Positions 5,784-35,931 of a stretch of DNA of 64,000 bases are shown piece by piece; positions within the stretch are counted from its first letter, which is position 1; each line of letters begins with the position of its first letter. Source of the DNA: an uncultured delta proteobacterium (GTDB lineage: Bacteria; Desulfobacterota; Desulfomonilia; UBA1062); contig CAWAUM010000001.1 of assembly GCA_963785235.1 (NCBI GenBank), positions 448,001-512,000 of the forward strand. The letters are read 5' to 3'. Position numbers and translations under genes: made by a program. Under the pieces are notes generated by a model, which had not been told where the DNA came from, ran no database searches, and was given only the letters and a program-made list of their open reading frames with translations.

Positions 5784-7202
5784 TTATCAAATCTCTTGCT
5801 GCATAATAGCCGCAAAGGCCGTGAACACCGCCACCGGGTGGCGTCGATGAAGAGCAGATAAATATATTGTGCTGAGATGTCCTGTAGGGATTGAGGGATA
5901 CCACCGGACGGGTATAGAGCTGAAAGATATCCTGCACTCCGCCGTTAATATCTCCCCCGACATAATTGGGGTTGTACTGTTCCATCATTGTCGCCGACAT
6001 GGTGTTTCTTGCCAGGATGACCTCTCGAAACCCCGGGGCATAGCGTTCAATCTTTTTTTCTATACTATCGGCCATATCCGCTTTTGAACCATGGGGAACA
6101 TGGCAATACCCCCAGGCCGTGTGCCTGCCTTCAGGGCTCCGTGAAGGATCGAAGAGGCTCTGTTGTGCGAGCATCACATAGGGCGTCTTGCGATATTTCG
6201 CCCTTGTTTACGCAACAGACCGAAGCGGCTATCTCCTCATACGAATTGCCCAGGTGAACAGTCCCTGCCTTTCTACATATACCGGCCTTCCAGGGGATCG
6301 GTTCTTTCAGTGCCCAGTCCATTTTATAAACGCCTGGTCCGTAACGGAATCCGGCAAGTCTTTGCCGGTAATTTTCGGAAAGACCAAGGCCTTTCATATC
6401 CAACAACTGCCGGGGCGTGACGTCAAAAAAATAATAGGTTGCCCGCGGCATATCCTCCAAAGAACTGACCGGTTTGCCCGTTACGATTTCGCCTCCCCGG
6501 TCAATGAAAGCAACGGGACAGGGCATCGGCCAGATTCTGCGAGCCGCCTTGTACAAACGGCCACCCTACAGCATGGGCTAATGTCGCAAGTACAATGCCG
6601 AAGGCCGCCGTTGCGGGTTTGTGAAGGGGAATCATGGCATGGGCTGCAAGCCCGGCAAATAACGCTCGCGTCTGATGGTTGTGGAATTTTTTTTCTCCAA
6701 GACCTTTTGCGGAATAAAGTGCCTTTGATGCAAATCTGGCCATGAGAAAGGGATCAAAAGGAAAGGGAATCGGTCTTAATATGCCGGATAACAATCTTTC
6801 ATAGCCCTTTACAAAAGGCGTAAGAAGATCTTTGTATGCCGTGGCGTCGCGACCCAAAGCATCGGCTGTTATATCCAGGGACCGGTGGAGAAAAACAGCA
6901 GATCCATCCTCAAACGGGTGGGCAAGCGGTATTTCCGGATTGACCCAGGAAAGGCCATATTGATGAAGTTCAAGTGGTCTGAAGAAAGATGAGGAGGCCG
7001 CAAGAGGATGAGCGGTGGAACAGATGTCGTGAACAAAACCAGGTAGAGTTAATTCTGCGGATCGGCACCCCCCCCCGATGGTTTCTTTCGCTTCCAGCAG
7101 AATCACGGATGGAAATTTTCTGCTGAGGGTAATCGCAGCAGCCAGGCCGTTGGGACCACTGCCCACGACGACAGCATCATAATGTTGTTTCTTAGGCGTC
7201 AA
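5779..7202 (-). CDS. NAD(P)/FAD-dependent oxidoreductase, phytoene dehydrogenase-like family (3 ORF pieces, apparent sequencing frameshifts)
   Basis: AVVVGSGPNGLAAA, LPGFVHDICS, GWPFVQGGSQ, AGTVHLG, FDPSRSPEG, NPNYVGGDINGG, STPPGGGVHGLCGYYAA across ORFs 6501-7202, 6131-6556 and 5779-6177. Confidence 0.85.
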
Positions 7203-8332
7203 TGTTTTTGACCATCATTCATATTTTTCCGGGAAGAGAGAATTCTTCTCAGCAGATACAGCGGCATATAGAAAGAAGAGCGGATGGCACCGCAATACCA
7301 GACATTTCCCATCTCGCCCCACCGAAGACGGCTGTCGATCAGGACATTTTGCTGTTCGATCCTGCCTTCAACGCCCAGGCGTGAGGCAAGATTACCCAGC
7401 GTCTGATGCCAGAATTGATCCTCCTGCCGCGCCGCACCCAATCGAAAACCAAGTTCCATAACGGGATCGGCTGCTCTGAAGAGGGGATGCACCTGGATGA
7501 TGGTTTTATGATCCTGGCGAAAACTGCTGAAGGTTATCCAGCCACAAAGCATGTGACCCTGTACCGTCGAAAAACAAAAGGAGTCGTCATCGGCGTATAT
7601 AACCTGGATGCCTGTTGCCAGCACAAGCATGCCCCCGATGCTGAGATTCAAAAGCGCCGTCGCACCAGGGACTATGGGAGCGCCGCCGGAGGTGAACAGA
7701 TGGTTGCCTTTCGGCCAGAAATGGGGAAACTCGGACCGCCAGAGAGATACGATCTTTTGCGGCTCCATATCTGTGTTGTCGATCTGAAAGCGGTATTTCT
7801 TATCCCAAAGGCGACCGAATCCATTGACAGGGCTGGTAACTTTTCTGCCGTTTACGTTTATATTCATTGCCTCTGCAGGTACATCACCTATGGATATATG
7901 CTCAACATTTCCCGCCCAGCCAGGGACAAGGGGTCCCTTGTACACTTGGAACGCACCTGAGGCGGTTTGAACCCTTGTTGGGAAAGGCCGTTGGCGCAAC
8001 GCTTCATGTTCGTCTTCAAACAACGCTATGGCCTTATCAAGGCATGTCAGACGAAAGACATCCCGGAAAGGGTCTGCGAGATTGCTGGCCGCCAGCCCGA
8101 TCTTCTTTTGCGCAAGTCTGGTTGCATAAACGAGCAGAAGGCTTGCCCCTTCAGAATCCAGGTGGGTAAGATTGGCAAAATTCAAAAGAATGTTTTTATT
8201 TTTTCTCATTCCCTCATCATATAATCGAGACAAGGTATTTTCCCAGGTTCCATTGAGTGGTCCCTGTATATCCAAAATCAAAGTCTCCCCATCGGCAATC
8301 CTTGGTCTAATGGTACCTTTGTCTTCAGACAT
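7199..8332 (-). CDS. STAS (anti-sigma antagonist) domain fused to a DUF1990-like domain
   Basis: N-terminal ILLNFANLTHLDSEG...FRLTCLDKAIALFEDEHEAL (STAS). C-terminal VIYADDDSFCFSTVQGH..GWITFS resembles DUF1990-type proteins. Confidence 0.65.
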   Translation of the reverse strand: MSEDKGTIRPRIADGETLILDIQGPLNGTWENTLSRLYDEGMRKNKNILLNFANLTHLDSEGASLLLVYATRLAQKKIGLAASNLADPFRDVFRLTCLDKAIALFEDEHEALRQRPFPTRVQTASGAFQVYKGPLVPGWAGNVEHISIGDVPAEAMNINVNGRKVTSPVNGFGRLWDKKYRFQIDNTDMEPQKIVSLWRSEFPHFWPKGNHLFTSGGAPIVPGATALLNLSIGGMLVLATGIQVIYADDDSFCFSTVQGHMLCGWITFSSFRQDHKTIIQVHPLFRAADPVMELGFRLGAARQEDQFWHQTLGNLASRLGVEGRIEQQNVLIDSRLRWGEMGNVWYCGAIRSSFYMPLYLLRRILSSRKNMNDGQKH

Positions 8333-8742
8333 GGGATCTTCCTTTCCTCTTGCAATATTGTGTCAATCAAATGGTCTTGATATTCTATCACATCATGCAG
8401 GAGAATGCTTCCGTTCTCTCTTTATCTAATACCGTTGATCTCTTCGATATTGCTGGCCCCAATCTCAGATTATGAACCATTGATTACTGCAATAGATCAA
8501 GGTTTTGAGATGGCTGGAAACTGAATATCTTGTGTTGAACCCTATGCAGATAACCCCTCCACATCAAAGCGTGAAGACTGGCACATGAATCTATGGTGTA
8601 AGGCATTTAACAGCTTATTGCTTTACACCCAATATCTGGATATACTGCTATGGTTCATCAGATAGTGGGATATGCTTACAGAAGTGCTGTATATTTAGGA
8701 TGAATACCTGGAAGAATAAATAAATTTGTAAGGGAGTTTATA

Positions 8743-8928
8743 ATGGGAGATCTTAAAAAGGGCGATGTGGTTAAATTAAAGAGTGGAAGTCCTGCAATGA
8801 CGGTTGAAGATGTTACTTCCGATGGTACGCTAAGTTGTGTTTGGTATGATAATGACAAGAAGGAAATCATGGGTAGAAAGTTCTCGTATGAATGTCTTGA
8901 TCTTGCCACCCCCGTTAAGCCTGAATAA
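8743..8928 (+). CDS. YodC/DUF2158 family small protein
   Basis: KKGDVVKLKSGSPAMTV...CVWYD signature, with RBS AGGGAG upstream. Confidence 0.85.
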   Translation: MGDLKKGDVVKLKSGSPAMTVEDVTSDGTLSCVWYDNDKKEIMGRKFSYECLDLATPVKPE

Positions 8929-8992
8929 ATCAAAGCCTCTTCGATTGAATCATCATGAAAGAAAGGACCAGTGAAGAGCAGGGAGTATTTGA

Positions 8993-9721
8993 TCATCTAT
9001 TATAGCCATAAGCTGCCCATCCGGAAATATCGTCATTCCAGCCGTCCATTTCGATACCGTTGTCTTCGGCCAGCTTTTTACGGAAGGCAACCTTTTCCTC
9101 ATCCAGTAGCGGCCGGTCCATTCTGAAAACCAGGGCAACCGACGATTTACCACACTGCGCATAATAACCGTACTCTCGGGTGAACCGGTCGAAATATACA
9201 ATTACCTGGGGTTGGGAAGGATCGCTGCTGCCGGTGGCCATGTGGCCGTAGAAGGGTCGATGAGGGATATTGAACAGCTCGAAGGAGTTCTTGTTCAGAC
9301 CTGTTGCAACGATGGTTCCTGCCGGGAGTTCCGATATCTCCTTCATGGAGAGTTTCCTGCCCAGGATCACCTCTACACCTTTCTCCAACGCCTGCCTGTA
9401 GAGGACATTCTCCAGAGAGAGCTCTCCCTTTCCCCTCTCCATGGTGTAGGCCTCCGTCAGGTGAGGCAGGGCAAACTCAAATCTCTTTCCATAAGCCAAA
9501 ATCCGGGTGGATTTCCAGGGCTCGAGCGCTTCGCGGATGCTGATCCCAAGCTCCCTTTCCAGCACCGCCGGATACATGAGGGTGGCATCAGCAAAGGATA
9601 TATCTCCCCCGATAGTGTTCTTCGCCTCGTAAATTCTTACCTTGAAGCCCTGGCCGGCAAGGTTTATGCCCGCGACCAGTCCCGCCAATCCTGCCCCTAC
9701 AATATCTATCTCCCTTGACAT
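8993..9721 (-). pseudogene. FAD-dependent oxidoreductase (geranylgeranyl reductase-like), apparently C-terminally truncated
   Basis: IVGAGLAGL...VRIYE, IVATG. Ends at 242 aa without the C-terminal GD/DP..G-type FAD motif, and no continuation was found in other frames. Confidence 0.55.
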
Positions 9722-9809: not shown

Positions 9810-10786
9810 TCACCGTCTGATCTTTCCCGGCAGGATGTAGGGATACGGCCTTTTGAGGATGTTGGTGCAGATGATGCGGTCCAGCCTCCTGAGGGCAAGA
9901 AAGAGTCTCCAGATAAAGGCATCCTCGCGATAGTACGATTTCACCTCGTTTTCGGTTATGGGTTTTATCTTGATGTCGGATGCCTCGTGAACAAAAAACG
10001 AGTTTGCCGCATCAATGAAATCCCTGATGAGATCGGGCCGCTGTTCCTTGTACAGGTTCGCAATAAGGTCGACTGCTACGAGATGGAAATCATAATACCT
10101 GTCCAGGACGCCCTGAAGGAAAAAGGCCCTGATGAGCCATACCAGGAATGACGGGGCGCTACGCAGGAAGAGCTCGGGCTCGAGCTGCTCCTTCCCATTG
10201 ATCCGGATCAGCGGTGTACTCGTGTCGATATAATAGAGTTCTGCATCTGTTTGTGACTGAAGGGGCCGCTGGATTCAAATCCTTCAGCGCCCAGTTGGAG
10301 AGCTGGCCGTCTAGCCCCATGAGTGTTGCACCGCTGTTTGCGTTGAATCTCCACACCTTGAGCATATGCCTGAGGATTACGAGAAAGAGCGTCTTCAATG
10401 AGGCTGTATCGAGACTGTGGAGAAGCCGGTGGCACAGGGACTCGGGCCGCAGCTTTTGCTGGATGATGTAGACGACCATATTCCCGGTCTCTGGATATAC
10501 CCTCGCTGTTGAATATTCAGGAACCATGATGCCGATCTCTTCACTCAGGAGCTTGTTATACTCGTATGAACAGGGCCTCGTACCGATCCATCTCATCCAT
10601 GCTCAGAAATATCGGCATACGTTTAAAGGCCAGGCCTCGCTGGTTCTCCTGGAGGATTTCAAAGATGGTGCTTATCTCCCCATAGCCGAGGATCCTGGCC
10701 GGGATCAGGCTTTTTTCCGGGGCCTTAGGGTTCAGGCCGTGCTCGAAACGATTGAGAAGATCAATGTCTATGCCTTTTTCGATCAT
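9810..10786 (-). CDS. DUF6206-like protein with protein-kinase-like motifs (3 frame pieces)
   Basis: Reconstructed: ILGYGEISTIF, LAFKRMP, VYIIQQKL, GLDGQLSNW, LYYIDTSTP, ...YILPGKIRR-stop. Confidence 0.7.
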
Positions 10787-10796
10787 GGTAACACCT

Positions 10797-12057
10797 TCAG
10801 GCCAGACCAAGAAACCTTTTGGTGTCGTCAAGGGCTTTGTCCACGCGCTCAATAATCTCATAGGCCAGTTCATCATCGATGATGAGCGGGGGCAGGAGCT
10901 GGCTTATCCGCGTATCGTTGTTGGCGTAGATGCTCAGGACACCGTTGTCGTAGCATGCCTTGGTCATGATGGGACCGCAGAGATCGTTTACCATCTCGAT
11001 TCCCATCATGAGCCCAAGCTGGCGCAGGCCCACGAGGATCTCGGGGTGCTTCTTCTTTAAGGTTGTGAACCCTTGGTTAAAGATTTCCGCAAGGCCCTGT
11101 ACGTGAAGGAGGAATTCACTCCGGGACGACTCTTCGAGCACGGCCAGCGCCACCGGGCAGCCCACCTCGGCCCCGCCGAAGGTGGAGATGTGGATGAAGG
11201 GGTTCTGGTGGAAGAATGGCTCCAGTTCTTCCCTGAAGCAGGTGGCGCTCATGGGGTATATTCCCCCGGACAGCCCTTTGCCGATGACGATGATATCGGG
11301 GACTACACCATAATGCTCTATGCCCCAGAGCCTGCCGGTGCGGCCAAGGCCGGTCTGGACCTCGTCCATGATGAGGAGCGCGCCGTTTTCCGTGCACAGT
11401 TCCTTTACCAGGAGGTAGTAGTCCGCCTCCGGGATGGGCATGCCCAGGGTAGCCGGAATGGTCTCGAAGATGACGGCTGCCGTATTGTGGTCAATGGCGG
11501 ACCTGATGGCGGCTTTGTCATTGAAGGGCACCTGGACGAATCCCTGGGGTTGCGGCCCGAAGGGTGACCGGTATTTCTCGTCTCCTGCGGCCAGCGCAAG
11601 TCCGGTATGTCCGTGGTAGCCGCCTTTGGCCGAGATGATCTTGTGCCTTCCCGTGTATCCTCTGGCGAGTTTTATGGCCAGGTCCACTGCCTCTCCGCCG
11701 GATACGCCGAATACGGTGCGGCGAAATGTCGCCGGGCATGAGCCGGGCGAGCCTTTCAGCCAGCAGTGCGCGCTGTTCGCTTATGAGATGGTGGTTGCCG
11801 ATGTCGAGCTCGTCGAGACTTTCCTTGAGAACCTGTATGATCTTGGGATTTCTGTGGCCCAGGTTGAAGACCCCGCCGTTGCAGTGGCAGTTGATGAGCC
11901 TCCTGGTGCCGGTGGCATCCCACACATAGGGGCCTTCCCGCCTGCCGAAGACAAAGTCGATGCCCACGCCGGTGAAGAAGGAAGCCTTGCCGCTGGAGAC
12001 ATGTGCAGAGAAGCGCTCAATGATAGCCTCTTTCGTATCAATGCCGGAGAAATTCAT
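10797..12057 (-). CDS. class III PLP-dependent aminotransferase family (putrescine/acetylornithine AT-like), one frameshift
   Basis: GVFNLGHRNP, GGYHGHT, LIMDEVQTGLGRTG, PDIIVIGKGLSGG (PLP Lys), HISTFGG. Confidence 0.88.
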
Positions 12058-12376
12058 TGCAAGCCCTCAAAGCCTTTCGATAGAGCGAAAGGGATTTTTA
12101 CCTGAAACCCTTTAGATGACCATACAGCCAAACCAGATGTGCGGTCAACACCCTGCAATGTTCTTGCACCTCCCTTGACCGATTTATGGGGTGCAGGTGG
12201 CCGTAAGCTATTCTTCGGGTTTTTATATGCAAACCATGTGATAATTTGTTAATAATCAGAAATTAAAAGGCCATGGTTATTGTGATGCCAAATAGTATGT
12301 CTTGTGGATGCCTGCTGCGTGCTCGAACATGGAAGCGTTGTCCGCTGCCCTTATGAGATTTAAAGGTATTTAACTT

Positions 12377-18201: not shown

Positions 18202-21173
18202 TTAAGGCTTTTTCCGTTTTGGCGCCGGTCTGTACAACACCTTGACGATATTTTGCGCGTCCGGGTTGTGCAGGAGGGCCTCGGGATGTTCCATGTAAGG
18301 CTTCAGGAGATCCTTCACCTTGTCACCTAAGAGCACCAAAGATACGTTTGCGGTCTTCATCATCTATCTTCAGCAGGTATGCCGTGAGCACCCTGAGCTG
18401 GGTGTTGATGAATCCTGCGGTCTTCATGGATATACCGTGTACCCGGGAAAAGGCATAGTCCTCATTGACGGCTGCGAAACTGATATCCCGCATGACCATG
18501 TTCCAGCCTTTCGTGCTCTCGGGTGATTCGTCCCTGACCAGGATCTGTTTGATGCGGTCAGTGAACTCGGGCATGATGTACTCGTTGAGTACATCAGGGT
18601 TGAATTCCTTCCCATAGATCTTTTCCGCTTCATACCGGAAACGGTCGGTGAGATTCCTGAGCCATTCGAAGTACGAGGCGTTAACGCCCCCCTGGTTTGC
18701 CAGGAAATCATAGATCACTGCCACTTTGTTTCTTGCCAGGATTATCTCTGCCTTGGAGGTATGGGGTCCGTTGCTGCCGCAGGCAATAACCTTTGCCCTG
18801 ATCTTGGGGAGCATTGTGGATGGTGATGGCATTTTCCAATGCCGCAGGCACGAGGATGTCACATTCCAGCTCCAGGACGCATCCCCCTTCTCTGGCGCCG
18901 AAGATCTTCTGCGTAATGTTTTTTTCTGCATGCATGACTGAGAATCTCAGTCTACGCTCGGCTTCGTTGGCTGAATTGTTCACGGCTCTGAGCAGTTCAT
19001 CCACATCAAGATGGTCCCCGATGACAGCACCACCTGCATCGGCCACGGCAATGACATTGACGCAAAAGGGCTTCAACTCCTGCAGCAATGACCCTCCCAC
19101 CTTGCCTGATCCCTGGACCACGACCTTCTTGTCCTTTAAGAGCTTGGGGTAGATCTCTGTGGTCAGCTTAGCCCACTCATCATCGGTGAGCAGGTCGAGG
19201 CCCTTCTTCTCGATGATCAGTTTTTCCGTTATGGCTGCTGCCTTTTCCAGAAGAGTCTTTTCAGGAGGGGATAACTCTTCGTTCAAAGGCCAGTCGCCAT
19301 GCAGGTACATGTTAGTCGCCATGGAAAGAATGCTGAAGAGGAGCCCTCTGCCTGTAGCGCCGCTCCTTGCTGGGATTCCCATGCGCGGCTTTCCCGTTAT
19401 CTGGGGGGCAACCACCAGTTCAAGATACCTTTCGCTGGTAATGAGCTCGTGCAGTATGCGCATGTCATAGGGATTGATATGGAAATTCTTCTCCAGGAGT
19501 CGGCGCGCCTCTTCCACCGAGATGACCCTGTCGCCGATGATGCTCAGGCTCTTCTTGATGCCCGAGGCCATGAGAGCCAGGTCACGCAGCGCGGACTTGA
19601 AGCCTTCGAACATGTCGCCGATCTCCGGGCCACCGCATCCCACATCTCCGGCCGGGACATCCAGGGAAGGTCCGGTGACCAGGAAGAGCGACCGGCCGAA
19701 GCTGGCCAGCGTGTCGAAGAAATCGATCTTGTCGTCGAAATCTTTAGGGTTCAGAACAATGCCGCCCTTTCCACCTCCGTAGAGGATCTTGGAACGGGCG
19801 CACTTCCAGGTCATCATGAAGGCAAGCGCCGCCACCTCGACGAACTTCACGATGGGGTCGATGCGTAATCCACCCTTGTAGGCCCTGCCGCGCAGAGCAT
19901 TGTGCTTGGTCCTGAAACCGGGTTTATGGGATAGTTCTCCCTTATTTCTGCTGAGCACGAAGAACTCATCAAAATGGTCAAAGGCGAGAAAGAGCCGGAT
20001 GATCTCGTCGCTGTTGTCGAGTCCGAGGAAGGAGAGTCCCTCCATGAAGTCGGAAAAGCCATTGAGCAGGAAATCGCCGATCTCGTCTTGCTTGGACAGG
20101 TCGGTATTGATCCTCATGAGCTCTTTGAGTCCTTCCACGGTCTCGTGAACCTTTTTTTGCGGAAGGCCCGGATCGCTCAGTGAACGTACCAACTCCTCAA
20201 GCCTTTCCTCTATGCGTGCAATGCGGTCTTTTTCCGGGGCAATGACTGATTCGCCTGATATAAAGATCTTTCTCAGGTCCTCTTCAATCCCTTCCAGACG
20301 TGTTGTTCCAGGCACATAGAGCGAGATGATCCCTACCGAGAAGGGGAGATCCGGGCCGGAAAAGAGGTCATAGTATGATCTGCTCAAAGAGATACCTTTG
20401 TTCTTGAAACAGTCCAGGACCGCAATCACCGACCCCACATGGGGATTCATGATGCCTACGGACACCCTGGACTCGCTGATGGCGATCTTGTCTGTGTCGA
20501 TCTCCTGGGACGTATCCTCCCTGGAGATGAAGAGGCTGCCGTCGGCTATGGTGTCTTCAAACATCTTGAGGTGCCGCTTGATCCGCAACGGGTACATGGG
20601 GTTGTTGATCTCTTCAGAGAAATAGCACTCATCAAGGCAGTTCAAAAAGCCTTGGGTATGGCTGCATCCCTCTTTCTCTCCGAAACAGTTCATGGCCCAT
20701 ATCATCTTGTCCAGGGCTTCCTGGTCATAGAGCGGGTAGAGATCCCTGCCCCGAGTTCCTTTTTTCTGGATGGTGATGATCCTCAATCCCGAGCTTGTCT
20801 TTACCGAGTCGAAGGAGGATATGCCCATGTCGGCGTTCTCGCTGATGATCCTCTCCATGCGGCCCGGGAAATCCCTCCCGATATTGAGAAAATAGGTAAT
20901 GGTCTTCCCGTCATTGCTCACCTGGGTGCAGTACTCCTTGTTGGCATCCAGGAGCTGGCTCATGATCACGAAATGGCCTGCAATGTCCGCGGCCGTATTG
21001 CTCAGGAAGTACCACGGCGGCAGGTATTCCACGGAGAAGTAGGATTCCAGTATCTTGCTGGTGGTGTTGATGTCCAGTTTGTGGTCCTGTTCCAGATGAC
21101 CACGGACATCTGTGGCAAGGGACTCGAGATAGCGATCAATGGTTTTTGTGCTGCTTGGGCTGTTGATATTCAT
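18202..21173 (-). CDS. large (~990 aa) Glu/Leu/Phe/Val dehydrogenase with long N-terminal extension (2 frameshifts)
   Basis: GFRTKHN..RG.AYKGGLR, MTWKC, YGGGKGG, VPAGDVG, ITGKP, ATGRG, VQGSGKVG, CDILVPAALEN, ANQGGVNASYFEW. Confidence 0.85.
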
Positions 21174-21211: not shown

Positions 21212-22405
21212 TTATCCGAGCCCGGCAAGGGCCTGTTCGAGGTCGGCAATGAGGTCCGGAACGTCCTCGATACCCACGGAGTAGCGCACGAGCCCCTCGG
21301 GAATCCCCATGGCAGCGCGTTCTTCAGATGTGCATTCCACGTGGCTCGTGGTGGCAGGAGGGCCTGCAATGGTCTCCACAGCACCAAGGTTGGCCGCCCG
21401 GTGGGCGAGTTGCAGGCGCGGCAGGAAGGCCTTCACGGCATCCAGGTCACCATGAAGGGTAAAGCTCAGGACCCCGCCGAAGCCCTTCATCTGTTTTTGG
21501 GCAATGACATGTCCCTGATGGCTTTCAAGTCCCGGGTAGAATACCTCTTTGACCGCCTTGTGACCCTCCAGGTAACGGGCGATAGTCATGGCGCTCTCGT
21601 TCTGCCGTGAGATGCGCAGACTCAGGGTCTTCATGCCTCTGAGCAGCAGGTATGCGGCCATGGGATCGAGCGCTGCGCCGTTGATCTCCCGGAAGTGATA
21701 GATCTTCTTCACCAGATCCATGGGTCCGCATATGACCCCGCCCAAGGCATCGGCATGGCCCCCTAAAAACTTGGTGGCGCTGTGTATCACCAGATCCGCT
21801 CCCAGATGTAAGGGCCGCTGGTTGATGGGGGTGGCAAAGGTGTTGTCCACCACTACAATGGCGCCTGCATCGTGGGCCGCCCTGGCAAGCCTTTCTATGT
21901 CCACGACCTTGAGCGTGGGGTTGGTGGGGCTCTCCAGGTAAAGGACCTTGCACCCCTTCTTAACCTCGTTTTCGATCTGCTCATGGTCTGTTGTTTCGCA
22001 CAGGAAGGCCTCAATGTTGAATCTCGGGAGGAATTCAATGAAGAGCTTGCTCGTGCCGCCATAGCTGTCCTTGATGGACACCACACGGTCTCCTGGCGAG
22101 AGCAGGGTGAACAGGGTGTTGCTGATGGCAGCCATGCCGCTGGAAAAAGACGTTGCCGCCTGCCCCTCTTCCAGCAGACGGACCTTTTCTTCAAAGGCCG
22201 CCACCGTGGGATTGGTGTTCCGGCTGTAGATGTTTCCGGGTGCAAGGCCTTGACCCACCTTGATCCACTTTTCCATGTCGTCGTATCCGAAGGACACGCT
22301 CTGCACGATGGGGACCTGGGTGGGGTTCCCGGATGCGCCCTTGTCCTCGCCTCCCCACACTGCGATGGTGCCGGTGCCCTGCTGTCGTTTTTCTTCCATG
22401 TTCAA
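21212..22405 (-). CDS. Cys/Met metabolism PLP enzyme (cystathionine gamma-synthase/lyase family)
   Basis: YSRNTNPT, FSSGMAAI, ESPTNPTL, DNTFATP, HSATKFLGGHAD, RYSVGIED. Confidence 0.92.
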   Translation of the reverse strand: MNMEEKRQQGTGTIAVWGGEDKGASGNPTQVPIVQSVSFGYDDMEKWIKVGQGLAPGNIYSRNTNPTVAAFEEKVRLLEEGQAATSFSSGMAAISNTLFTLLSPGDRVVSIKDSYGGTSKLFIEFLPRFNIEAFLCETTDHEQIENEVKKGCKVLYLESPTNPTLKVVDIERLARAAHDAGAIVVVDNTFATPINQRPLHLGADLVIHSATKFLGGHADALGGVICGPMDLVKKIYHFREINGAALDPMAAYLLLRGMKTLSLRISRQNESAMTIARYLEGHKAVKEVFYPGLESHQGHVIAQKQMKGFGGVLSFTLHGDLDAVKAFLPRLQLAHRAANLGAVETIAGPPATTSHVECTSEERAAMGIPEGLVRYSVGIEDVPDLIADLEQALAGLG

Positions 22406-23194: not shown

Positions 23195-24544
23195 CTACAC
23201 GATGCCCTGGGCCATCATGGCATCGGCAACCTTCACGAAACCTGCAATGTTCGCCCCGTTCACATAGTTACCGGGAGAGCCATAGGTTGATGAGGCATTG
23301 ACGCAGGCCGAGTGGATGGCCTTCATGATCATCCTGAGCCGGTTGTCCACCTCTTCGCTGGTCCAGTTGATCCTCATGCTGTTCTGGGTCATCTCCAGGC
23401 CGGATACCGATACGCCGCCGGCGTTTGCCGCCTTGCCGGGTCCGTAGAGGATCTTATGGTCGAGGTAGATCTCTACACCGTCAGGGGTGGTGGGCATATT
23501 GGCGCCTTCACTCACGACATAGACGCCGTTCTTGATGAGGTTTGCCGCATCTTTGCCGTTGATCTCGTTCTGGGTGGCAGACGGGAAGGCGCAGTCGGCC
23601 TTGTGGTTCCACAGGGGATTGAAATCCTTGGCCGGATCGATAGGGGTGTATACGACACCCTTATACTTGTCTGCATACTCCTTCATGCGGCCCCTGCGGA
23701 TATTCTTAAGCTCCATGACATAGGCCAGCTTCTCACGATCAATACCCTTTTCGTCGAAGATGTATCCGTTTGAGTCGGACAGGGTAACTACCTTTGCGCC
23801 GAGGTCCAGGAGTTTTTCCGTGGTGTACTGGGAAACGTTGCCCGAACCTGATACCAGGCAGGTCTTGCCTTCCAGGGTCTGATTCCTGGTGGAGAGCATC
23901 TCTGCTGCAAAATAGACGGAGCCGTAGCCGGTGGCCTCGGGCCGGATGAGGCTGCCGCCGAAATTCAGCCCTTTGCCGGTTAGCACCCCTACAAACTCAT
24001 TGCGGAGTTTCTTATACATCCCGAAGAGATACCCGATCTCCCGGGCGCCTACGCCGATATCACCTGCCGGGACATCGGTGAACTGGCCGACATGCCGGAA
24101 GATCTCGCTCATGAAGCTGTGGCAGAAACGCATGACCTCGCGGTCCGACTTGCCCTTGGGGTCGAAGTTGGAGCCGCCCTTGCCGCCGCCCATGGGCAAC
24201 GTGGTGAGTGAGTTCTTGAATACCTGTTCGAAGGCCAGGAACTTGAGGATACTGAGGTTCACCGAGGGGTGAAACCTGAACCCGCCCTTATAGGGCCCGA
24301 TGGCGCTGTTCATCTGGATCCGATAACCCCGGTTCACCTGGACATCGCCCTTGTCATCAACCCAGGGCACCCTGAACATGACCAACCGCTCCGGTTCCAC
24401 CATCCGCTCAAGGATCTTTTCCTTGCGGTATTCGGGGTGCTTTTCGAGGACCGGTTTCACTGATTTTACGACCTCAGAGACTGCCTGGAGAAATTCTTTT
24501 TCCCCTGGGTTGCATTCCTCACACTTCTGTAAAAAGTCTTCCAT
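23195..24544 (-). CDS. gdhA: glutamate dehydrogenase, GdhA type
   Basis: FRVPWVDD, GPYKGG.RFHPSVN, MGGGKGGSNFDPKG, DVPAGDIGVG, RPEATGYG, GKAANAGGV. Confidence 0.96.
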   Translation of the reverse strand: MEDFLQKCEECNPGEKEFLQAVSEVVKSVKPVLEKHPEYRKEKILERMVEPERLVMFRVPWVDDKGDVQVNRGYRIQMNSAIGPYKGGFRFHPSVNLSILKFLAFEQVFKNSLTTLPMGGGKGGSNFDPKGKSDREVMRFCHSFMSEIFRHVGQFTDVPAGDIGVGAREIGYLFGMYKKLRNEFVGVLTGKGLNFGGSLIRPEATGYGSVYFAAEMLSTRNQTLEGKTCLVSGSGNVSQYTTEKLLDLGAKVVTLSDSNGYIFDEKGIDREKLAYVMELKNIRRGRMKEYADKYKGVVYTPIDPAKDFNPLWNHKADCAFPSATQNEINGKDAANLIKNGVYVVSEGANMPTTPDGVEIYLDHKILYGPGKAANAGGVSVSGLEMTQNSMRINWTSEEVDNRLRMIMKAIHSACVNASSTYGSPGNYVNGANIAGFVKVADAMMAQGIV

Positions 24545-24739
24545 AGTTTTGAATCCTCCTTTTTAAGGTTTCGTATGCATGTTTCTTATTGTTACATCAT
24601 AGGCTGTGAACCTTTTTCTATTCAGCTTTTCCTGGTCATTTTGCCTGCTCACAGCATTTTGATGCTCCTTTTCTGCAGAAATAATCTCGTTCCTTTTTCC
24701 TACGTCCTTCGATGACTGGTTCGTGGTGAATTTGGGGGT

Positions 24740-24779
24740 GTTCAATCCATCCATCCTTTGAGAGATGGATGGATTGAAC
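24740..24779. terminator. perfect 16-bp hairpin downstream of the ABC operon
   Basis: GTTCAATCCATCCATC-CTTTGAGA-GATGGATGGATTGAAC. Confidence 0.55.
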
Positions 24780-24832
24780 GTTATGAAGAGAGGGCTAAGA
24801 GTATCTATCCGGTGCCATGTTCACCTTCGTGT

Positions 24833-25543
24833 TTAAATCCCCAGGTATGCTTCCCTGATCTTCGGGTTAGCCAGGAGTTCCTTGCCGGTGCCTTCCATAA
24901 CGATGCGGCCGTGCTCGAGCACATAACCGCGGTTTGAGAGGCTCAACGAGTGCTGCACATCCTGCTCCACCAGGAGCACCGTGGTCCCCTGGTCTGCGAT
25001 GGTCCGGATGGTCTGGAAGATCTCCTTGATGAGGACCGGAGCAAGTCCCAGCGACGGCTCGTCAAGCATGAGGATCTTGGGCATGGCCATCATGCCCCTG
25101 CCGATGGCCACCATCTGCTGTTCGCCGCCGGACAGGGTAATGGCCTGCTGTTTTTCCCGCTCTTCCAGCCTGGGCAGCAGTTTATAGACATCCTTGATGG
25201 TCTCGGTCTTGTGGGGGAATGCCCGGGTATTATGGGCCCCCACATCGAGGTTTTCCTTCACGGTCATGAGGCTGAACAGCCTCCTGCCCTCGGGCACATG
25301 GATGATGCCCTTCTCCACGATCTTCTCGGGGCGGAGCGCCTGGATGGGCTGGTTCTCGAAGAGGATCTCACCGGAGGCGGTCTTCATGAGCCCGGAGATG
25401 GTCCTGAGCATCGTGGACTTGCCGGCCCCGTTGGCGCCGATAAGGCTGATGACCTCTCCTTCCTCGATGTGCAGTGAGACGTCGTAGATTACCTGGACGT
25501 CGCCGTAAAAGCAGTTTATGTTTTTAATGTCAAGCAGCGCCAT
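24833..25543 (-). CDS. livF: HAAT/branched-chain-type ABC transporter ATPase (LivF-like)
   Basis: GANGAGKST, VPEGRR, LSGGEQQM, LDEPSLGLAP, AYLG. Confidence 0.92.
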   Translation of the reverse strand: MALLDIKNINCFYGDVQVIYDVSLHIEEGEVISLIGANGAGKSTMLRTISGLMKTASGEILFENQPIQALRPEKIVEKGIIHVPEGRRLFSLMTVKENLDVGAHNTRAFPHKTETIKDVYKLLPRLEEREKQQAITLSGGEQQMVAIGRGMMAMPKILMLDEPSLGLAPVLIKEIFQTIRTIADQGTTVLLVEQDVQHSLSLSNRGYVLEHGRIVMEGTGKELLANPKIREAYLGI

Positions 25544-26255
25544 AGCTCTCCCCCAGGTATGCCTTGATTACTCGTTCATCTTTCGCCACTTCTTGAGGCG
25601 TGCCGTCCATGATCTTCTTGCCGAACTGGATGACCGTGATCTTGTCGGAGACCGACATGATGGCGCGCATGATATGCTCGATCATGAATATGGTGACGCC
25701 CTTGTCCCTGATCCACCTGATCACGTCCAGCGTCTCGTCCACCTCGTTGGGGCGTAGGCCCGCCATGCATTCGTCAAGGAGCAGCAGTTCGGGGTCAGTG
25801 GCCAGGGCGCGTGCGAATTCAAGCCGCTTGCGGTCGGCAATGGTAAGGTTCTTGGCAAGCTGGTTACGCTTGTCTGCAAGGTGGAACTTCTCCAGGGAAT
25901 CCAGCGCCATATCTCTTACTTCAGCCACGTTGCTGGACCTGATGAATGCACCCACCATGGCGTTGAAGAGCACGGTCTTGGTCTGGAACGGCTTCACGAT
26001 CTGGAATGTCCGGGCGACCTTTATCCTGCAGATATCCCAGGGTTTCATGCCCGTGATATTCTGATCCTTGAAGAGGACGTTTCCGATGGTCGGTGCAAAT
26101 GAGCCTGCCACGCAGTTGAAGAGCGTGGATTTCCCTGCGCCGTTGGGACCGATGAGGCCGTATATCTGGCCTTTTTCAATGGTGAGGCTCACCTGGTCGA
26201 CGGCCTTCAGGCCGCCGAAGTGCTTGGATACGTTTTGGATGTCGAGTATAGCCAT
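25530..26255 (-). CDS. livG: HAAT ABC transporter ATPase (LivG-like)
   Basis: FGGLKAV, GPNGAGKST, ARTFQ, LLLDE, IEH, AYLG. Confidence 0.92.
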   Translation of the reverse strand: MAILDIQNVSKHFGGLKAVDQVSLTIEKGQIYGLIGPNGAGKSTLFNCVAGSFAPTIGNVLFKDQNITGMKPWDICRIKVARTFQIVKPFQTKTVLFNAMVGAFIRSSNVAEVRDMALDSLEKFHLADKRNQLAKNLTIADRKRLEFARALATDPELLLLDECMAGLRPNEVDETLDVIRWIRDKGVTIFMIEHIMRAIMSVSDKITVIQFGKKIMDGTPQEVAKDERVIKAYLGESYGAA

Positions 26256-26256
26256 G

Positions 26257-27298
26257 TTAAGCCTTCACCTCCTTTGCAGACTTTGCCCCGCTGAGCTTGT
26301 CGAGGGTCCAGTCGTAGAATCTCGTAAGCGGCAGCACCAGGCCCCGGGGCTGGAAGAGCATGACCAGGATCAGGACGAGCCCGTATATCACCAGGTGAAG
26401 ACCGGGCAGTACCGCGCTCAGGTAGATCCGTGAAAATTCGCCCACAGGCCTCAGCAGGAGCGCCCCGATCACCGGGCCGGCAATGGTGCCGCGGCCGCCG
26501 ATGAGCGCGATGAAGGCAAGCTCGAAGGAGAAGTCCAGGCTCAAGATCCCCTTGGGAAAGAAGTACAGGTTGAGCTGGGCATAGAAGGTTCCGGCAAATG
26601 CGGTGAGGAAGCAGCTCAGTGCCATGAAAAACTCCTTGTACCTCGCCACGTTTACGCCCAGGGCCTGGGCCGCCTCGGGCTCCTCTCCGCCTGCGAGGAT
26701 GTAATAACCCGGCCTGATCCTTGATACGTACCAGGTGATGAACAGCGCAATGCAGAGCATGATGAGGATGATGTAGTAGTAGGGGAGCTTGTCCACGAAC
26801 TGGTAATTGATGAGGTTTTCCATGGGTGTCCCCATCTTCAAGGGGACGCTGATCCCCCGGGGGCCGTTGATCTCAAAGGGCCCGAGTTTCATGGTGTTCT
26901 CCACCAGCACCCTCACCCCTTCACCAAAGGCCATGGTGGACAGGGCGAAGTATGCGCCGCGGAGCTTCAAGGTCGGTATGCCGATAATCAATCCTACAAC
27001 CGCTGCAAGTGCGCCCCCTACGAACATGCCGAGCCAGGGGCTTAACCCATAGGTCATGAACAGAACCGTTGAGGTATACGCCCCGATCCCCACATATGCT
27101 GAATGCCCCAGGGGCAGGACCCCGGCAAAGCCCCCGACCAGGTTCCATGAGGTGGTAAGGTAGGCATAGAAGAACAGCAGGATAATGATCTGCAGGTATG
27201 TGGGGCTCGTCATCCACAGTGGGCAATGTGAATACGACTCCGATCAGCACGATCTTCAGTGCATTGTCGATTAATTTTCTCTTTTTTGACCGAAGCAT
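26257..27298 (-). CDS. livM: HAAT ABC permease (LivM-like), N-terminal frameshift
   Basis: WNLVGGFAG..PLGH, LRGAYFAL.T, GGRGT..GP, QPRGL. Confidence 0.88.
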
Positions 27299-27319
27299 TC
27301 ATCTTCGTTGTCTCCTTTC

Positions 27320-28205
27320 TTACCAATCCCGCTTTTCACCGAAGAGGCCGGCCGGTCTGATGAACAGTACTGCCAGGAACACCACATAGACGATGAGCTC
27401 GGTCCATGTGGAGGTCATGTAAATGGCGAACAAGGACTCGATGAGTCCTACGATCAGACCGCCGATGAGTGCCCCTGGGATGCTCCCAAGACCGCCTAAG
27501 ACCACGATGATGAAGCATTTCACGTCAAAGACGACCCCCACCGAGGGAAATACATAGTAGAATGGAATGAGGACGCATCCAACGATCCCTGCAATGGCGG
27601 CCCCTATGCCGAAGGCGATATTGTACACGCGGTACTGGTTGATCCCCATGAGGCTTGCGGCATCCCTGTCCAAGGAGGCGGCCCTGATGGACTTGCCCAT
27701 CCTGGTGTATTTGAGGAACCAGAGGAGGAGACCCGATGTGACTGCCGTAGTAATCACTCCATAGAGCTGTGCCTTGGGGAAGATGAAGTCGCCGAGCATG
27801 AAGATCTGCCCCGACATACTGGTCTGGACAACCCGGTACTCGGCCCCGAAGAGCATGAGGGCAAGGTTGTCAAGGATGTACCACACGCCCGTGGTCACGA
27901 TGATGACCTCGGTGGGCTCGCGCACATCGCTCTGTGCGTCCAGGATCGGTTTGATCAGAACACCCTGCAGCGCATAGCCGAACACAGAAGAGCATGGGGA
28001 CGACCAGGAAAAGGGCTGCATAGGGGTTCCATCCGGTCAGCTTCACGATCCAGTATGCGGTGAACATGCCCACCATCAATAAGGAACCGTGGGCGAAGTT
28101 GATGACCTTTATGACACCGAATATGAGCGTGAGGCCCAGTGCTGCGAGACCATAATATGAGCCGGTCATGACCCCGTTTATGATTGCTTGAATAATAACG
28201 TCCAT
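27320..28205 (-). CDS. livH: HAAT ABC permease (LivH-like), one frameshift
   Basis: ALGLTLIFG..KVINFAHG, GKSIRA, VVLGGLGSIPGA, RPAGLFG. Confidence 0.9.
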
Positions 28206-28235
28206 GGTGACCTCGTTTCTGATTGGGTCGCGGGG

Positions 28236-28260
28236 GCCGGGCCCTTTTTAGGGGCCCGGC
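28236..28260. other. intercistronic hairpin after the substrate-binding protein gene (possible mRNA stabiliser)
   Basis: GCCGGGCCC-TTTTTAG-GGGCCCGGC between the SBP and permease genes. Confidence 0.5.
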
Positions 28261-28320
28261 TTTACCGCTTATGCTCCAATACGTTTTCTTCTCTTTACGC
28301 TCCGCTTGGTTATGACGTTC

Positions 28321-29595
28321 TTACGGCATGGGGAATACGGCCTTGACGCCCTTCCTTGCTGCCGCAACCGGCCACACCGTCACGCGCTCCATGGTGCCTT
28401 TGACATCGCGGAACTGCACCAGCACGATGCCGGCTTCCTTGTTCTGGCCTGTCTCGTCAAACGCGACGCAGGGGTATGAAAGGATGTTGATGCCCAGCGG
28501 TGCCTTGGGACCCTGGCATAGTTTGGTTGCAGCCAGTGCATCCCTGATCTTTTTCGGGATCTGTCTGATTTTGCCCGCTCCAATGCGTCAGCGATCACAT
28601 AGACCGATGCAAAGGCATCGACGGATTCGCCGGCCAGGTCATAGCCGTTGCGCTTCTTGAACTCGGCATTGAGTGTGGGGATCTCCGGCCTGCCAAGGTC
28701 GGTCTCCCACTCCACCACGTCGAACATGTATTCGCAGTTCTTGGCGGTGTTCTTGCGGAACATGGGGTCGGCATGGCCGCCGCCGGTTCCGATGATGGCC
28801 TTGACCTTCACCTTCATGGTGGCCATGGTGTTGGTGAGCAGGATGGCATCGGCTGCGTTAGACGTGAGCAGCAGGACATCGGGCTTGGCGTTCTTGATCT
28901 TCATGACCACCGGGGTCAGGTCGGACGCCGTGCTGGGATAGGGCTCATCCAGGACGATCTTGTAGCCGAACTGCGCTGGCAAGCTTTGTCCACTGGTCCT
29001 TCATGCCGGTGCCCCAGTCGCCGTTCTCATAGACAAAGGCGATGGTCTTGAGGTCGGTCTTTGTGGCCTTTTTCATGTCATCGAGGAACCGGAACTGGTC
29101 ACGCGCCCACCAGCCGTCCTTTGCAGCGATGCGGAAGGTGTACTTGAAGCCGCGCTCCGTGATCTTGTCTGCAACGGATACCGGGACCACAAAGGGGATC
29201 TGATAGCGCTCTGCAACCTGGGTGGATGGATAGGTGACCGCCGAGTTCCAGCAGCCGGACAGGACGCTGACCTTATCCGAGTTGATGAGCTGCTCTGCAG
29301 CGCTCACGCCCACCGTCGGGTCGCCCTTGCTGTCGGTGAAGATGTTCACGAGCTTGGCGCCGCCTAAAGACTTGATGCCGCCTGCCTTGTTGATGTACTC
29401 GGTGGCCAGTTCAATGGCCTTCTGGTTCTGGATGCCCACGGATGCAGACGGGCCGGACAAGGGCAGGATGTTGCCGATCTTAACCTCTTTCGCACCTGCT
29501 GCAAGCACGGATGTCCCTGTTACGAACACCAGCGCGCAGGCAAGGGCGAATACCAAGATACTCAGTTTCGTAAGCCAGAAAGTCCTCTTGTTCAT
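28321..29595 (-). CDS. HAAT ABC substrate-binding protein (LivK-like), 2 frameshifts
   Basis: Signal peptide, VKIGNILPLSG, INKAGGIKSLGG, ITERGFKYTFR, YENGDWG, ends ...AVFPMP. Confidence 0.88.
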
Positions 29596-29697
29596 ATAAC
29601 TCCCCCTTTAGATTTGTTTTGCATTCTTTCCCACTCTGGGATCGTTCTCTTAATCATAGTAGCCATTAAGAGGCCATATTCAATCTGTCTCCAAAAG

Positions 29698-31009: not shown

Positions 31010-31069
31010 CTTGTCAGTTCCTCCTGAAAGCGTTCTTTATCTTACGCCCATGTCCGGCTTTGTCTGTTA

Positions 31070-32223: not shown

Positions 32224-32273
32224 GTCTTTTAACTCCTCCTTTGCTTACCGTTCTTTACAAGACCCACAAGTTT

Positions 32274-33580: not shown

Positions 33581-33864
33581 CGCCTACTCCTTTGTTGTGG
33601 TTTTCAATTACCTTTATTTCCGCCATCCATCGCTCTGCATCTTCGGGGCTCGTGATGTAGCGTATGGGGACCTCGCTCACATTATCATCGAGTTTTGCAC
33701 AGGCGCTCGAACATCCGGTCACGATCACAATCATCTGTGCATCCTCGCTGTCCGCAGCAACAAATTCCACCTCTTGTGCAAGCCGTTCCCGTATGGAATC
33801 CACCATACGCGACACGGTCGTAGCCGGCCCGGCAGCCGCCGCAATACTTCAGGCCTACCTTTAT
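33564..33864 (-). CDS. small Cys-rich hypothetical protein (YCGGC...GCxxxC), frameshifted, start uncertain
   Basis: KVGLKYCGGCRAGYDRV joined to MVDSIRERL...VIVTGCSSACAK. Confidence 0.65.
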
Positions 33865-35319: not shown

Positions 35320-35420
35320 ACGATCCTCCGTTTGTGCTATTCCTTGGATCAGGTTTGATTCTTTAGGGTTGCTGTAAAGTTATTATCATTAGGATGTTCA
35401 AGTAACCCCTGCCACTTAGT

Positions 35421-35436
35421 TACAAGAAGGGTGCCA
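35421..35436 (-). promoter_or_regulatory. sigma54 (-24/-12) promoter of the abfD operon
   Basis: Minus strand TGGCAC-CCTTC-TTGTA (GG at -24, GT variant at -12), ~100 nt upstream of the abfD ATG and next to a bEBP gene. Confidence 0.7.
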
Positions 35437-35546
35437 TGGTGTGCCGTTTGTATGACAATAGTAAATAAGATTAATAAAGTTAGATAAATATGAGGGTGGT
35501 TCCTTGGTGAGGACGGTAAAATTAGAGAGAACAAAGGACTAATAAT

Positions 35547-35736: not shown

Positions 35737-35792
35737 GAAACGGCATCTTAGTTTATTCCAGGGTTTGTGTTTAAGATGAGTAAAAAACTTGA

Positions 35793-35879: not shown

Positions 35880-35931
35880 CCTATTTTAAAAGCAAGTTCA
35901 TCATTCTGATGCCGTATCTTTACATAAGCCT

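Follow-up and report, generated by a model that had tools for sequence, protein, structure and literature searches.

A DUF6206 protein of predicted protein-kinase-like fold paired with an atypical class III PLP enzyme: a candidate kinase and phospho-lyase-type module for amino alcohols

The window analysed here is a stretch of 64,000 nucleotides from an uncultured delta proteobacterium (GenBank assembly GCA_963785235.1, contig CAWAUM010000001.1, positions 448,001 to 512,000 of the forward strand), and our subject is a pair of genes in it, one coding for a protein of the family DUF6206 (PF19709) and the other for a class III pyridoxal 5'-phosphate (PLP) enzyme. The two genes most likely form one unit. 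By modelling of its orthologues, the DUF6206 protein is predicted to have a protein-kinase-like (PKL) fold; its catalytic residues are conserved, its gene is linked to and co-inherited with that of the PLP enzyme, and the active site of the latter is altered. The best reading of this pair, to which we would give even chances, is a kinase plus phospho-lyase-type route for an amino alcohol.

Translation from stop to stop placed both genes next to each other on the minus strand, with the PLP gene first. A preliminary description of this locus, made from the sequence alone, had proposed a DUF6206 gene in three frame pieces starting 10 nt after a class III PLP gene, and the coordinates agree. The DUF6206 gene starts at an ATG at 10786, stops at 9810-9812 and is read in the pieces 10786-10559, 10602-10162 and 10274-9813; the PLP gene, whose stop is at 10797-10799, is likewise frame-broken, into the pieces 12057-11521 and 11780-10800. 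The Pfam assignment also held. The second and third DUF6206 pieces matched PF19709 above its gathering cut-off of 30.4 bits (E 3e-8 and 2.6e-11; 33.6 and 43.7 bits), the first piece, of 76 residues, had no Pfam match alone, and the pieces of the upstream gene matched PF00202 (Aminotran_3) with E values of 5.4e-8 (profile positions 11-86) and 4.6e-68 (profile positions 87-403; 230.2 bits). All the kinase motifs that had been claimed (LGYGEIST, LAFKR, DEMDRYE, YIIQQ, GLDGQLSN and YID) are present in the translated DUF6206 pieces, and the window's own pieces carry every catalytic residue considered below. Because the two genes are frame-broken in the window, intact orthologues were used for folds and profiles, and the pieces of the window were left unjoined.

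The intact DUF6206 orthologues are 305-356 aa long and score 52-103 bits against PF19709. An alignment of 114 relatives (A3) was composed of 8 sequences from the loci of related genomes and 106 of the best 150 matches of a profile search over 1.84 billion representative proteins, in which 738 matches were obtained at E≤1e-3; PF19709 was matched by all 114. The AlphaFold2 model of one orthologue (L041, 324 aa), calculated with this 114-row alignment, had a mean predicted local distance difference test (pLDDT) value of 96.3 and a predicted template modelling (pTM) score of 0.93. Its elements are β-strands at residues 30-35, 40-44 and 52-56, a helix at 63-84, strands at 91-96 and 103-110, a helix at 127-150, and a loop with strands at 154-195. 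This is the order of a protein kinase, that is, three N-terminal strands, a long helix, two strands and a helical lobe with short strands.

The model was compared with solved structures in two ways. Foldseek against the PDB gave at least 205 matches at E≤1e-3 and, among the matches listed, all were protein kinases or small-molecule phosphotransferases, including Wee1, haspin, MEK1, EGFR, APH(2'')-IIIa and PI4KII-alpha, with the aminopropanol kinase 6ef6 at rank 9. When the Foldseek chains were aligned with VIA-align, PRPK (6wqx_D, Z 11.8), WaaP (10.8), the amicoumacin kinase AmiN (10.7), MEK1, APH(2'')-IIIa, Bud32 and the macrolide phosphotransferase MPH-E (10.6) came out tied, and 6ef6 had 10.1. 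In a second VIA-align pass, over 48,161 representative chains, Bud32 (8k20_B), a putative APH (3csv) and AmiN (6sum, 232 residues aligned) each reached Z 11.4, followed by Rv3168 (3att) and 6ef6 at 11.2 (221 residues aligned for 6ef6, with a root-mean-square deviation of 4.7), NahK and WaaP (6dfl) at 10.8, MPH-E at 10.6 and the choline kinase LicA at 10.5. A Z of at least 8 was reached by 133 of the 48,161 chains, and nearly all of the 50 listed carry the title of a kinase or phosphotransferase. The alignment extends to the C-terminus (residue 324) only for chains of the APH/choline-kinase type, while those with eukaryotic-type protein kinases end at about residue 270. The PKL fold that had been suggested for DUF6206 is borne out by the orthologue model and by both structural comparisons, and the C-lobe predicted by the model is of the small-molecule-kinase type.

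Considering the individual groups of neighbours, the kinases of aminoglycoside phosphotransferase (APH) type (APH(2''), APH(3'), MPH, AmiN, NahK and LicA) share with the DUF6206 model the whole architecture including the helical C-lobe, with Z 10.1-11.4 and 199-233 residues aligned up to the C-terminus, and there is the weak Pfam APH match on the N-lobe of 3 of the 114 relatives described below. They differ in that DUF6206 has no family-level sequence membership among them and no resistance context, and its catalytic loop reads G-(I/L)-D-G-Q-x-S-N-W, whereas that of APH is H-x-D-x4-N. Bud32/PRPK (the kinase of the KEOPS complex), RIO and WaaP are top or tied neighbours of the kinase core, but they are shorter and align only to about residue 280-290; their targets are proteins, tRNA-modification complexes or lipopolysaccharide (LPS), they are not paired with PLP enzymes, and no KEOPS or LPS genes are conserved alongside the DUF6206 pair.

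The residues expected of an active kinase are conserved among the 114 relatives. Gly36 was kept in 114, Lys55 in 112, and Asp159, Asn164 and Asp187 in 113 each; the set Gly34/Gly36, Lys55, Asp159, Asn164 and Asp187 was kept in 103-114 of the 114. Conservation of the Lys, Asp, Asn and Asp across homologues, on which the kinase proposal depended, is therefore found at 112-113 of 114, with the loop Gly in all of them. Near-invariant too were Gln109 (113/114), Trp165 (110/114) and Pro191 (113/114). In the model the Gly-loop lies in the turn between strands β1 and β2, Lys55 in strand 3, Asp159 and Asn164 in the loop between strands 154-156 and 165-167, and Asp187 just past strand 183-185. These positions correspond to the Gly-loop, the Lys of VAIK, the catalytic loop and the DFG motif, in the order of the PKL superfamily.

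Sequence-only support for the kinase identity is thin. The Pfam family APH (PF01636) was detected on the N-terminal half of 3 of the 114 members, in one register, with E values of 3.4e-4, 5.2e-3 and 1.2e-2 and scores of 20.9, 17.0 and 15.8 bits, which are below its gathering cut-off of 23.2; it is the only Pfam family besides DUF6206 that recurs among them. The nearest named ESM-Atlas clusters outside DUF6206 with a family or kinase name were kinase-like throughout (ABC1, RIO1, APH, YrbL, T7 kinase and WaaY), at scores of 0.87-0.88, which serve as leads only. NCBIfam gave single weak hits only, to LanKC (0.0078), APH(9)-Ib (0.14) and LanL (0.21), and the DUF6206 hidden Markov model (HMM), searched against the 8,354 open reading frames (ORFs) of the genome, found nothing beyond itself.

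The link between the two genes was counted in several sets of genomes. In the family and class of the window, the PLP gene is directly upstream of DUF6206 in 19 of 20 loci. On contigs taken at one genome per species it was adjacent in 72 of 80 loci, 67 times upstream and 5 times downstream; about 10 of these 80 are the same places as in the 20-locus set, and the record titles of the 80 name Thermodesulfobacteriota (Syntrophaceae, Smithella), Chloroflexota (Dehalococcoidia, Anaerolineae) and Actinomycetota. DUF6206 was present in 24 of 401 sampled Actinomycetota genomes, with the PLP gene at 21 of the 24 loci, and six of those loci belong to a clade in which DUF6206 shares only 25-33% identity with the query. 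Among 401 genomes of the window's own phylum, 20 had DUF6206, and the PLP gene was found in 10 of 16 new loci with flanks of 1.5 kb. The genome-contig, Actinomycetota and own-phylum sets were pooled to 120 loci, counting a PLP gene at an identity of at least 44%. In 102 of the 120, spread over three or more phyla, the two genes are neighbours on one strand, with the order PLP then DUF6206 in 81 and the reverse in 21, and a median gap of 27 nt. Of the other loci, nine have room on both sides and no PLP gene, and nine are truncated by the end of a contig. A fusion of 751 aa, with DUF6206 followed by the PLP enzyme, was also found, as a cluster of five members from five contigs and two sources; it was the only longer relative found. 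A conserved linkage with class III PLP enzymes, which the preliminary description left to be examined, thus exists in several phyla, in both gene orders and in fused form.

The two genes are also inherited together. Among 61 relatives, an orthologous PLP enzyme (at least 57% identity) was found in 22 genomes, all of them among the 24 with DUF6206, and in 0 of the 37 lacking DUF6206; within the genus of the window it was present in 6 of 7 genomes with DUF6206 versus 0 of 7 without. This pattern of presence and absence needs repeated joint gain or loss; the relatives compared are kin and not independent of one another. A complex prediction of the PLP enzyme with DUF6206 had a score of 0.00, which is no answer and carries no weight either way.

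It is possible that such a close partner is a regulator: as a protein kinase, a pseudokinase or a scaffold, DUF6206 would control or activate the PLP enzyme, one way being to phosphorylate it. The strict pairing and the fused form would suit an enzyme with its regulator, and atypical kinases that act on proteins, Bud32/PRPK and RIO, are among the top structural neighbours. We consider this improbable, since the helical C-lobe aligns over its full length only with small-molecule kinases of the APH/choline-kinase type, the near-invariant catalytic residues speak against a pseudokinase, and the nine roomy loci carry DUF6206 with no PLP gene for it to regulate.

In the set of 1.84 billion proteins, about 740 clusters (50% identity) match the DUF6206 profile. 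Thermodesulfobacteriota, Chloroflexota, Actinomycetota and Spirochaetota are represented, and at least one record is archaeal (Euryarchaeota). Long forms of about 500-527 aa also exist (P0051 and relatives, several of them from Spirochaetota records); they have an N-terminal extension of 120-200 residues, in which no Pfam family was detected. Fusions of DUF6206 with BKACE (P0141) and with UPRTase (P0129) were seen as single cases and were set aside.

The nearest solved relative of the PLP enzyme is the putrescine aminotransferase of E. coli (PatA/YgjG, 4uox; E 1.5e-67), followed by PigE and acetylornithine aminotransferase, and it shares with this group the fold and the PLP-binding residues. 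It is nevertheless under the cut-off of every curated NCBIfam model, and by far: the intact orthologue scored 289.6 bits against a cut-off of 612 with the putrescine-aminotransferase model NF008570, 255 against 658.65 with TIGR03372, and 216.7 against 525 with the PbfA model. We aligned 25 linked PLP enzymes with GabT, ArgD and PatA from the E. coli K-12 record; R141, E211, K268 and R398 of GabT were confirmed in its sequence. In canonical omega-aminotransferases R398 holds the carboxylate of glutamate/2-oxoglutarate, and the basic residue at R141 binds the distal group of the substrate. The position of R141 is occupied by His in 24 of the 25 linked enzymes and in the window (YHGHT). That of R398, before PPL, has Gln in 24 of the 25, and the window agrees (SQLLPPL). 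The three E. coli enzymes GabT, ArgD and PatA have Arg there, and the basic residue after HG is Lys in PatA, so that PatA and its group differ from the linked enzymes at both sites. They differ also at the segment EPxQGEGG, which becomes E(T/P/S)(I/V)PATxG in the linked enzymes, with PAT for QGE. The equivalents of the PLP Lys (K268), the Asp and Gln of DEVQ (D239, Q242), the Thr (T297) and the switch Glu are all kept. The translation from the window bears the whole signature YHGHT, ETIPATLG, GKGLSGG and SQLLPPL.

We take Arg413 and Arg180 of human ornithine aminotransferase to be the counterparts of R398 and R141 in the GabT numbering. In a review of the human enzyme, Arg180 and Arg413 bind the substrate carboxylates, and the Arg413-Glu235 couple is described as highly conserved among all transaminases (PMC13327489). 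Because both carboxylate-binding arginines are replaced in the linked enzymes, these have no evident site for 2-oxoglutarate or pyruvate, and this fits a reaction which needs no keto acid, such as an elimination. In a maximum-likelihood tree all the enzymes of the PAT/Gln type (24 linked and 3 unlinked) formed one clade with support of 100/99, separate from the canonical paralogues of the same genomes and with the phyla intermixed inside it. Judged by its sequence, the PLP partner belongs to a class III clade of its own and is not an ordinary aminotransferase.

The preliminary description had mentioned, as its alternative, a putrescine aminotransferase that would feed the operon of 4-aminobutyrate (GABA)/4-hydroxybutyrate type in the window. 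DUF6206 would then be an unrelated neighbour. This proposal proved weak, and we find it hardly credible. It is true that a putrescine aminotransferase is the best match both among solved structures and in NCBIfam, and that only 18 kb separate the pair from the GABA-type operon, which has the same orientation. The scores, however, are far under the curated cut-offs, PatA retains the Arg that is replaced in the PLP partner, the operon owns a class III aminotransferase (Table 1), and the pair is found in unrelated surroundings in many genomes, with the PLP enzyme co-inherited with DUF6206.

A pair of this anatomy appears, by analogy, to match the logic of the known kinase/phospho-lyase pairs. Kinase-fold enzymes that phosphorylate amino alcohols feed phospho-lyases of class III fold, in mycobacteria for aminopropanol and in animals for hydroxylysine and ethanolamine. 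In the mechanism that we propose, DUF6206 would be an active ATP-dependent PKL kinase, whose C-lobe resembles the APH/choline-kinase type acting on small molecules. In a first step it would phosphorylate the hydroxyl that adjoins the amino group of a small amine-bearing alcohol, and in a second step the PLP enzyme would eliminate phosphate and ammonia, giving an aldehyde or a ketone. The chemistry put forward in the preliminary description, an amino-alcohol kinase with either a phospho-lyase or a subsequent transamination, agrees with these data; the phospho-lyase version is the more likely one because the partner is devoid of both carboxylate-binding arginines.

One of the closest known systems is that of 6ef6, which we take to be the (S)-1-amino-2-propanol kinase of the mycobacterial aminoacetone/aminopropanol microcompartment, with a class III phospho-lyase as its partner. 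Like the DUF6206 protein as modelled, it is a PKL small-molecule kinase whose gene adjoins that of a PLP enzyme of class III fold, and it belongs to the top structural tie (Z 11.2). The two differ in that the identity in structural alignments is only 7-10% and DUF6206 is under the APH family cut-off, that no microcompartment genes were found among the flanking genes scanned, and that the PLP partner of the window type branches with putrescine and acetylornithine aminotransferases. The pairs of hydroxylysine kinase with PHYKPL and of ethanolamine kinase with ETNPPL, reportedly described by Veiga-da-Cunha et al. in 2012, share the proposed logic, in which the hydroxyl beside the amine is phosphorylated and phosphate and ammonia are then eliminated without a keto acid; they differ in being animal enzymes that are not encoded as a gene pair. 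A lyase within an apparent transaminase family has a further precedent in PbfA, an (R)-1-hydroxy-2-aminoethylphosphonate ammonia-lyase of class III fold, annotated as a transaminase and acting on a β-hydroxy amine, which was recognised as a lyase from mutations at key specificity residues (PMC8154272). Unlike the PLP partner studied here, PbfA needs no kinase and is found in phosphonate operons, and its model is the one that gave the low score mentioned above.

Two other readings of the PLP partner have to be weighed against the phospho-lyase. In the first, the kinase would be paired with a genuine transaminase acting on a phosphorylated or non-carboxylate substrate (an amino sugar, an aminocyclitol or a phosphonate-like compound), with an unusual amino donor or acceptor; the kinase step could precede or follow the transamination. 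The PLP enzyme is indeed most closely related to aminotransferases, its PLP Lys, Asp, Gln, Thr and switch Glu are kept, and kinases of amino sugars or aminoglycosides (NahK, glucosamine kinase and APH) are among the structural neighbours of DUF6206. Taking into account that both carboxylate arginines are replaced in 24 of the 25 enzymes, with no evident 2-oxoglutarate or pyruvate site, and that sugar or cyclitol genes are not conserved nearby, we regard such a transaminase as unlikely. In the second, the PLP enzyme would be an aminomutase, a racemase or another single-substrate class III enzyme, the kinase would trap or supply its substrate, and no phosphate would be eliminated. The loss of the keto-acid-binding arginines suits any class III enzyme that has no second substrate, and in a search with the YHGH segment the glutamate-1-semialdehyde aminomutases were among the best matches (4e77 at 1.6e-7, and several more). 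No aminomutase, on the other hand, was among the 60 best solved full-length relatives, and to our knowledge no kinase partner is known for class III enzymes of the aminomutase or racemase type; the probability of this reading seems to us low.

Several results weigh against the kinase and phospho-lyase-type route itself. As regards the kinase, the Foldseek TM-scores were modest (0.3-0.43), the Z values of 10-12 are moderate, and no kinase subfamily is clearly the nearest. No conserved Glu of the C-helix was found, as no acidic residue at positions 57-84 is kept in at least 75% of the 114 sequences; Glu65, Glu70 and Glu75 are kept in the close clade only. Profiles of 15 or of 114 sequences found no kinase match among PDB sequences, with hhalign the 114-row alignment reached a probability of 0.5 against 28 APH-family orthologues of relatives, and under an HMM of the APH group 228 DUF6206 proteins ranked no higher than the 1,318 ORFs used as background (Mann-Whitney p 0.91). 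As regards the partner, its nearest solved or curated relatives are true aminotransferases, and human ETNPPL (6tor) was at about rank 35 in a search with a 53-residue segment and outside the 60 best solved full-length relatives. The context also counts: the nine roomy loci have DUF6206 and no PLP gene, at two loci (L107 and L115) the PLP gene is absent and glycyl-radical genes are near, and no conserved clue to the substrate was found near the pair, since the flanking genes vary by lineage.

A more far-reaching version of the kinase and phospho-lyase-type route would be that the pair is a widespread route of amino-alcohol degradation in anaerobic bacteria and archaea, independent of B12 and of a microcompartment, in which the phospho-lyase would have arisen independently in the ornithine/putrescine-aminotransferase branch. 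The known ethanolamine ammonia-lyase route uses B12 and a microcompartment, and the known phospho-lyases belong to the AGXT2-like branch. We put this version forward tentatively and would sooner bet against it than for it. As substrate, ethanolamine or aminopropanol derived from lipids and cofactors is a speculative suggestion.

The state of the two genes in the window deserves attention. Compared with the locus of a congener (G002, locus L024), the region is 91% identical over 2,295 bases, and exactly three additional single bases are seen in the window. The PLP gene has one of them and DUF6206 the other two; the remaining gaps are one compensating pair and one intergenic gap, with no further change of frame inside the genes. 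Contigs of related strains from four public runs each omit one letter at all three insertion sites, and no other insertion or deletion was found in them inside the two genes. Elsewhere in the assembly, 7 of 27 conserved genes are frame-split as judged against the proteins of relatives, one of the seven being doubtful; trmD is among them (C5:476791-477469, in genome G000, which has 13 contigs). Within the window, splits also affect at least three genes at 28-35 kb: those of the AbfD-like protein, the CoA-transferase and the binding protein are each represented by neighbouring ORFs with matches to successive parts of a single profile or protein. The breaks are most likely errors of assembly, because the related strains are free of them and many other genes are split.

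The contrary possibility is that both genes are real pseudogenes here, with three genuine frameshifts private to this lineage. From the assembly-wide rate about 0.6 breaks would be expected in 2.2 kb by our own arithmetic, and the three observed are somewhat high; the congener G002 also has ATA at the place of the window's DUF6206 ATG. We give this only a small chance, in view of the 7 of 27 other conserved genes (trmD included) that are frame-split, the several splits at 28-35 kb, the related strains of four runs without any of the three insertions, and a coding sequence that is 91% identical to its orthologue with no frame change beyond the three single bases. The DUF6206 orthologue of the congener (L024, G002:C17) has, besides its ATA start, no other start codon before about residue 55, and it may be an assembly error or a decaying copy. 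In a genome with frequent single-base insertions and deletions, broken genes should not be called pseudogenes without read support. Apart from the probable assembly errors, the copy in the window is an ordinary member of the module.

A conserved third partner of the pair was sought, and none was general; the neighbours are lineage-specific. In the family of the window the pair lies among the housekeeping genes rimM, trmD, rplS, rnhB and uvrA. In the window, the pair is preceded by an amidohydrolase and sensor kinases and followed by small FAD-binding ORFs and a STAS protein. The region that comes directly after DUF6206 (6504-9721, minus strand) has a STAS-domain protein of 377 aa (7202-8332) between two short ORFs, 8996-9721 (242 aa) and 6504-7202 (233 aa), each with a Rossmann motif for FAD/NAD(P) binding at its N-terminus; a homologue of the 8996-9721 ORF is found at another locus (L039) about 6 kb from its own pair. 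Four promoter-like sites were observed in the region against 2.6 expected from shuffled sequences. The features of the window are collected in Table 1.

Table 1. Features of the pair and of the neighbouring operon in the window (positions of the whole stretch).
Feature	Position	Strand	Remarks
Atypical class III (fold-type I) PLP-enzyme gene	10797..12057	-	PF00202; about 419 aa read through; one extra base
DUF6206 gene, protein-kinase-like, putative small-molecule kinase	9810..10786	-	PF19709; about 324 aa read through; two extra bases
Spacer from PLP-gene stop to DUF6206 ATG	10787..10796	-	10 nt
1-nt insertion (frameshift) in PLP-enzyme gene	11720..11722	-	blastn against L024 and contigs of four runs
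First 1-nt insertion (frameshift) in DUF6206	10561..10564	-	Comparison with L024 and contigs of four runs
Second 1-nt insertion (frameshift) in DUF6206	10248..10250	-	Comparison with L024 and contigs of four runs
Sigma-70-like promoter match (TTGACC, 18 nt, TATGGT)	12119..12148	-	About 60 nt upstream of PLP-enzyme start; weak, consensus match only
GABA/4-hydroxybutyrate-type fermentation operon	23198-37731	-	
Sigma-54 activator	35935-37731	-	GABA-type operon
AbfD/HpaB-like dehydratase, two ORFs	33864-35319	-	GABA-type operon
CoA-transferase, split	32277-33580	-	GABA-type operon
Fe-alcohol dehydrogenase	31045-32223	-	GABA-type operon
Second class III aminotransferase, truncated	30023-31009	-	GABA-type operon
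Branched-chain-type ABC transporter, binding protein split	24836-29595	-	GABA-type operon
Glutamate dehydrogenase	23198-24544	-	GABA-type operon
Large ORF of 821 aa, glutamate-dehydrogenase-like	18711-21173	-	Glu/Leu/Phe/Val dehydrogenase domains in C-terminal half only
Cys/Met-metabolism PLP enzyme	21215-22405		Beside the 821-aa ORF

In other lineages the surroundings are different. In Dehalococcoidia (L049-L063, L086, L099 and L106) the pair is placed between the genes of an FMN reductase and an HpaB/AbfD-like protein, and this set of four genes recurs in about 11-12 loci, of which L055:4138-8500 is an example; penicillin-amidase-like genes are often upstream. In some Syntrophaceae the pair is near a DUF4147/MOFRL gene and a 435-residue protein without a family. 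A protein of about 435 aa that belongs to no Pfam family and starts with M-C-D-T accompanies the pair in several phyla (at L068:8359-9663 and at 11 further loci), often adjoining a DUF4147/MOFRL (glycerate-kinase-like) gene; in the window's own genome it is at C5:219896-221164, on another contig, together with a gene of the latter type. At four loci (L107, L113, L115 and L069) DUF6206 is beside a glycyl-radical enzyme (similar to pyruvate formate-lyase, 745-990 aa) and a radical S-adenosylmethionine activase, and these neighbours may hint at a different partner chemistry; the first three loci come from Anaerolineae, Actinomycetota and a metagenome-assembled genome named as Chloroflexota. In one genus (g10; L032 and L036) two nitronate-monooxygenase-like genes and an aldehyde:ferredoxin oxidoreductase are just downstream of the pair; an aldehyde-oxidising neighbour would suit an aldehyde product, and it occurs in this one genus only.

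A system of a kinase with a lyase-type class III enzyme is of a known kind, and both components here belong to uncharacterised families. In the literature searched no paper on DUF6206 or PF19709 was found, and the source records call these proteins only "hypothetical" or "DUF6206 family protein". If the kinase and phospho-lyase-type route is true, DUF6206 becomes a new family of small-molecule kinases, and its PLP partner would show that lyase-type chemistry arose a second time, and independently, within the class III aminotransferase fold. The names "aminotransferase" and "putrescine aminotransferase", given to members of this clade by similarity, would then need correction, and the pair could supply a missing step in the nitrogen and carbon turnover of anoxic sediments.

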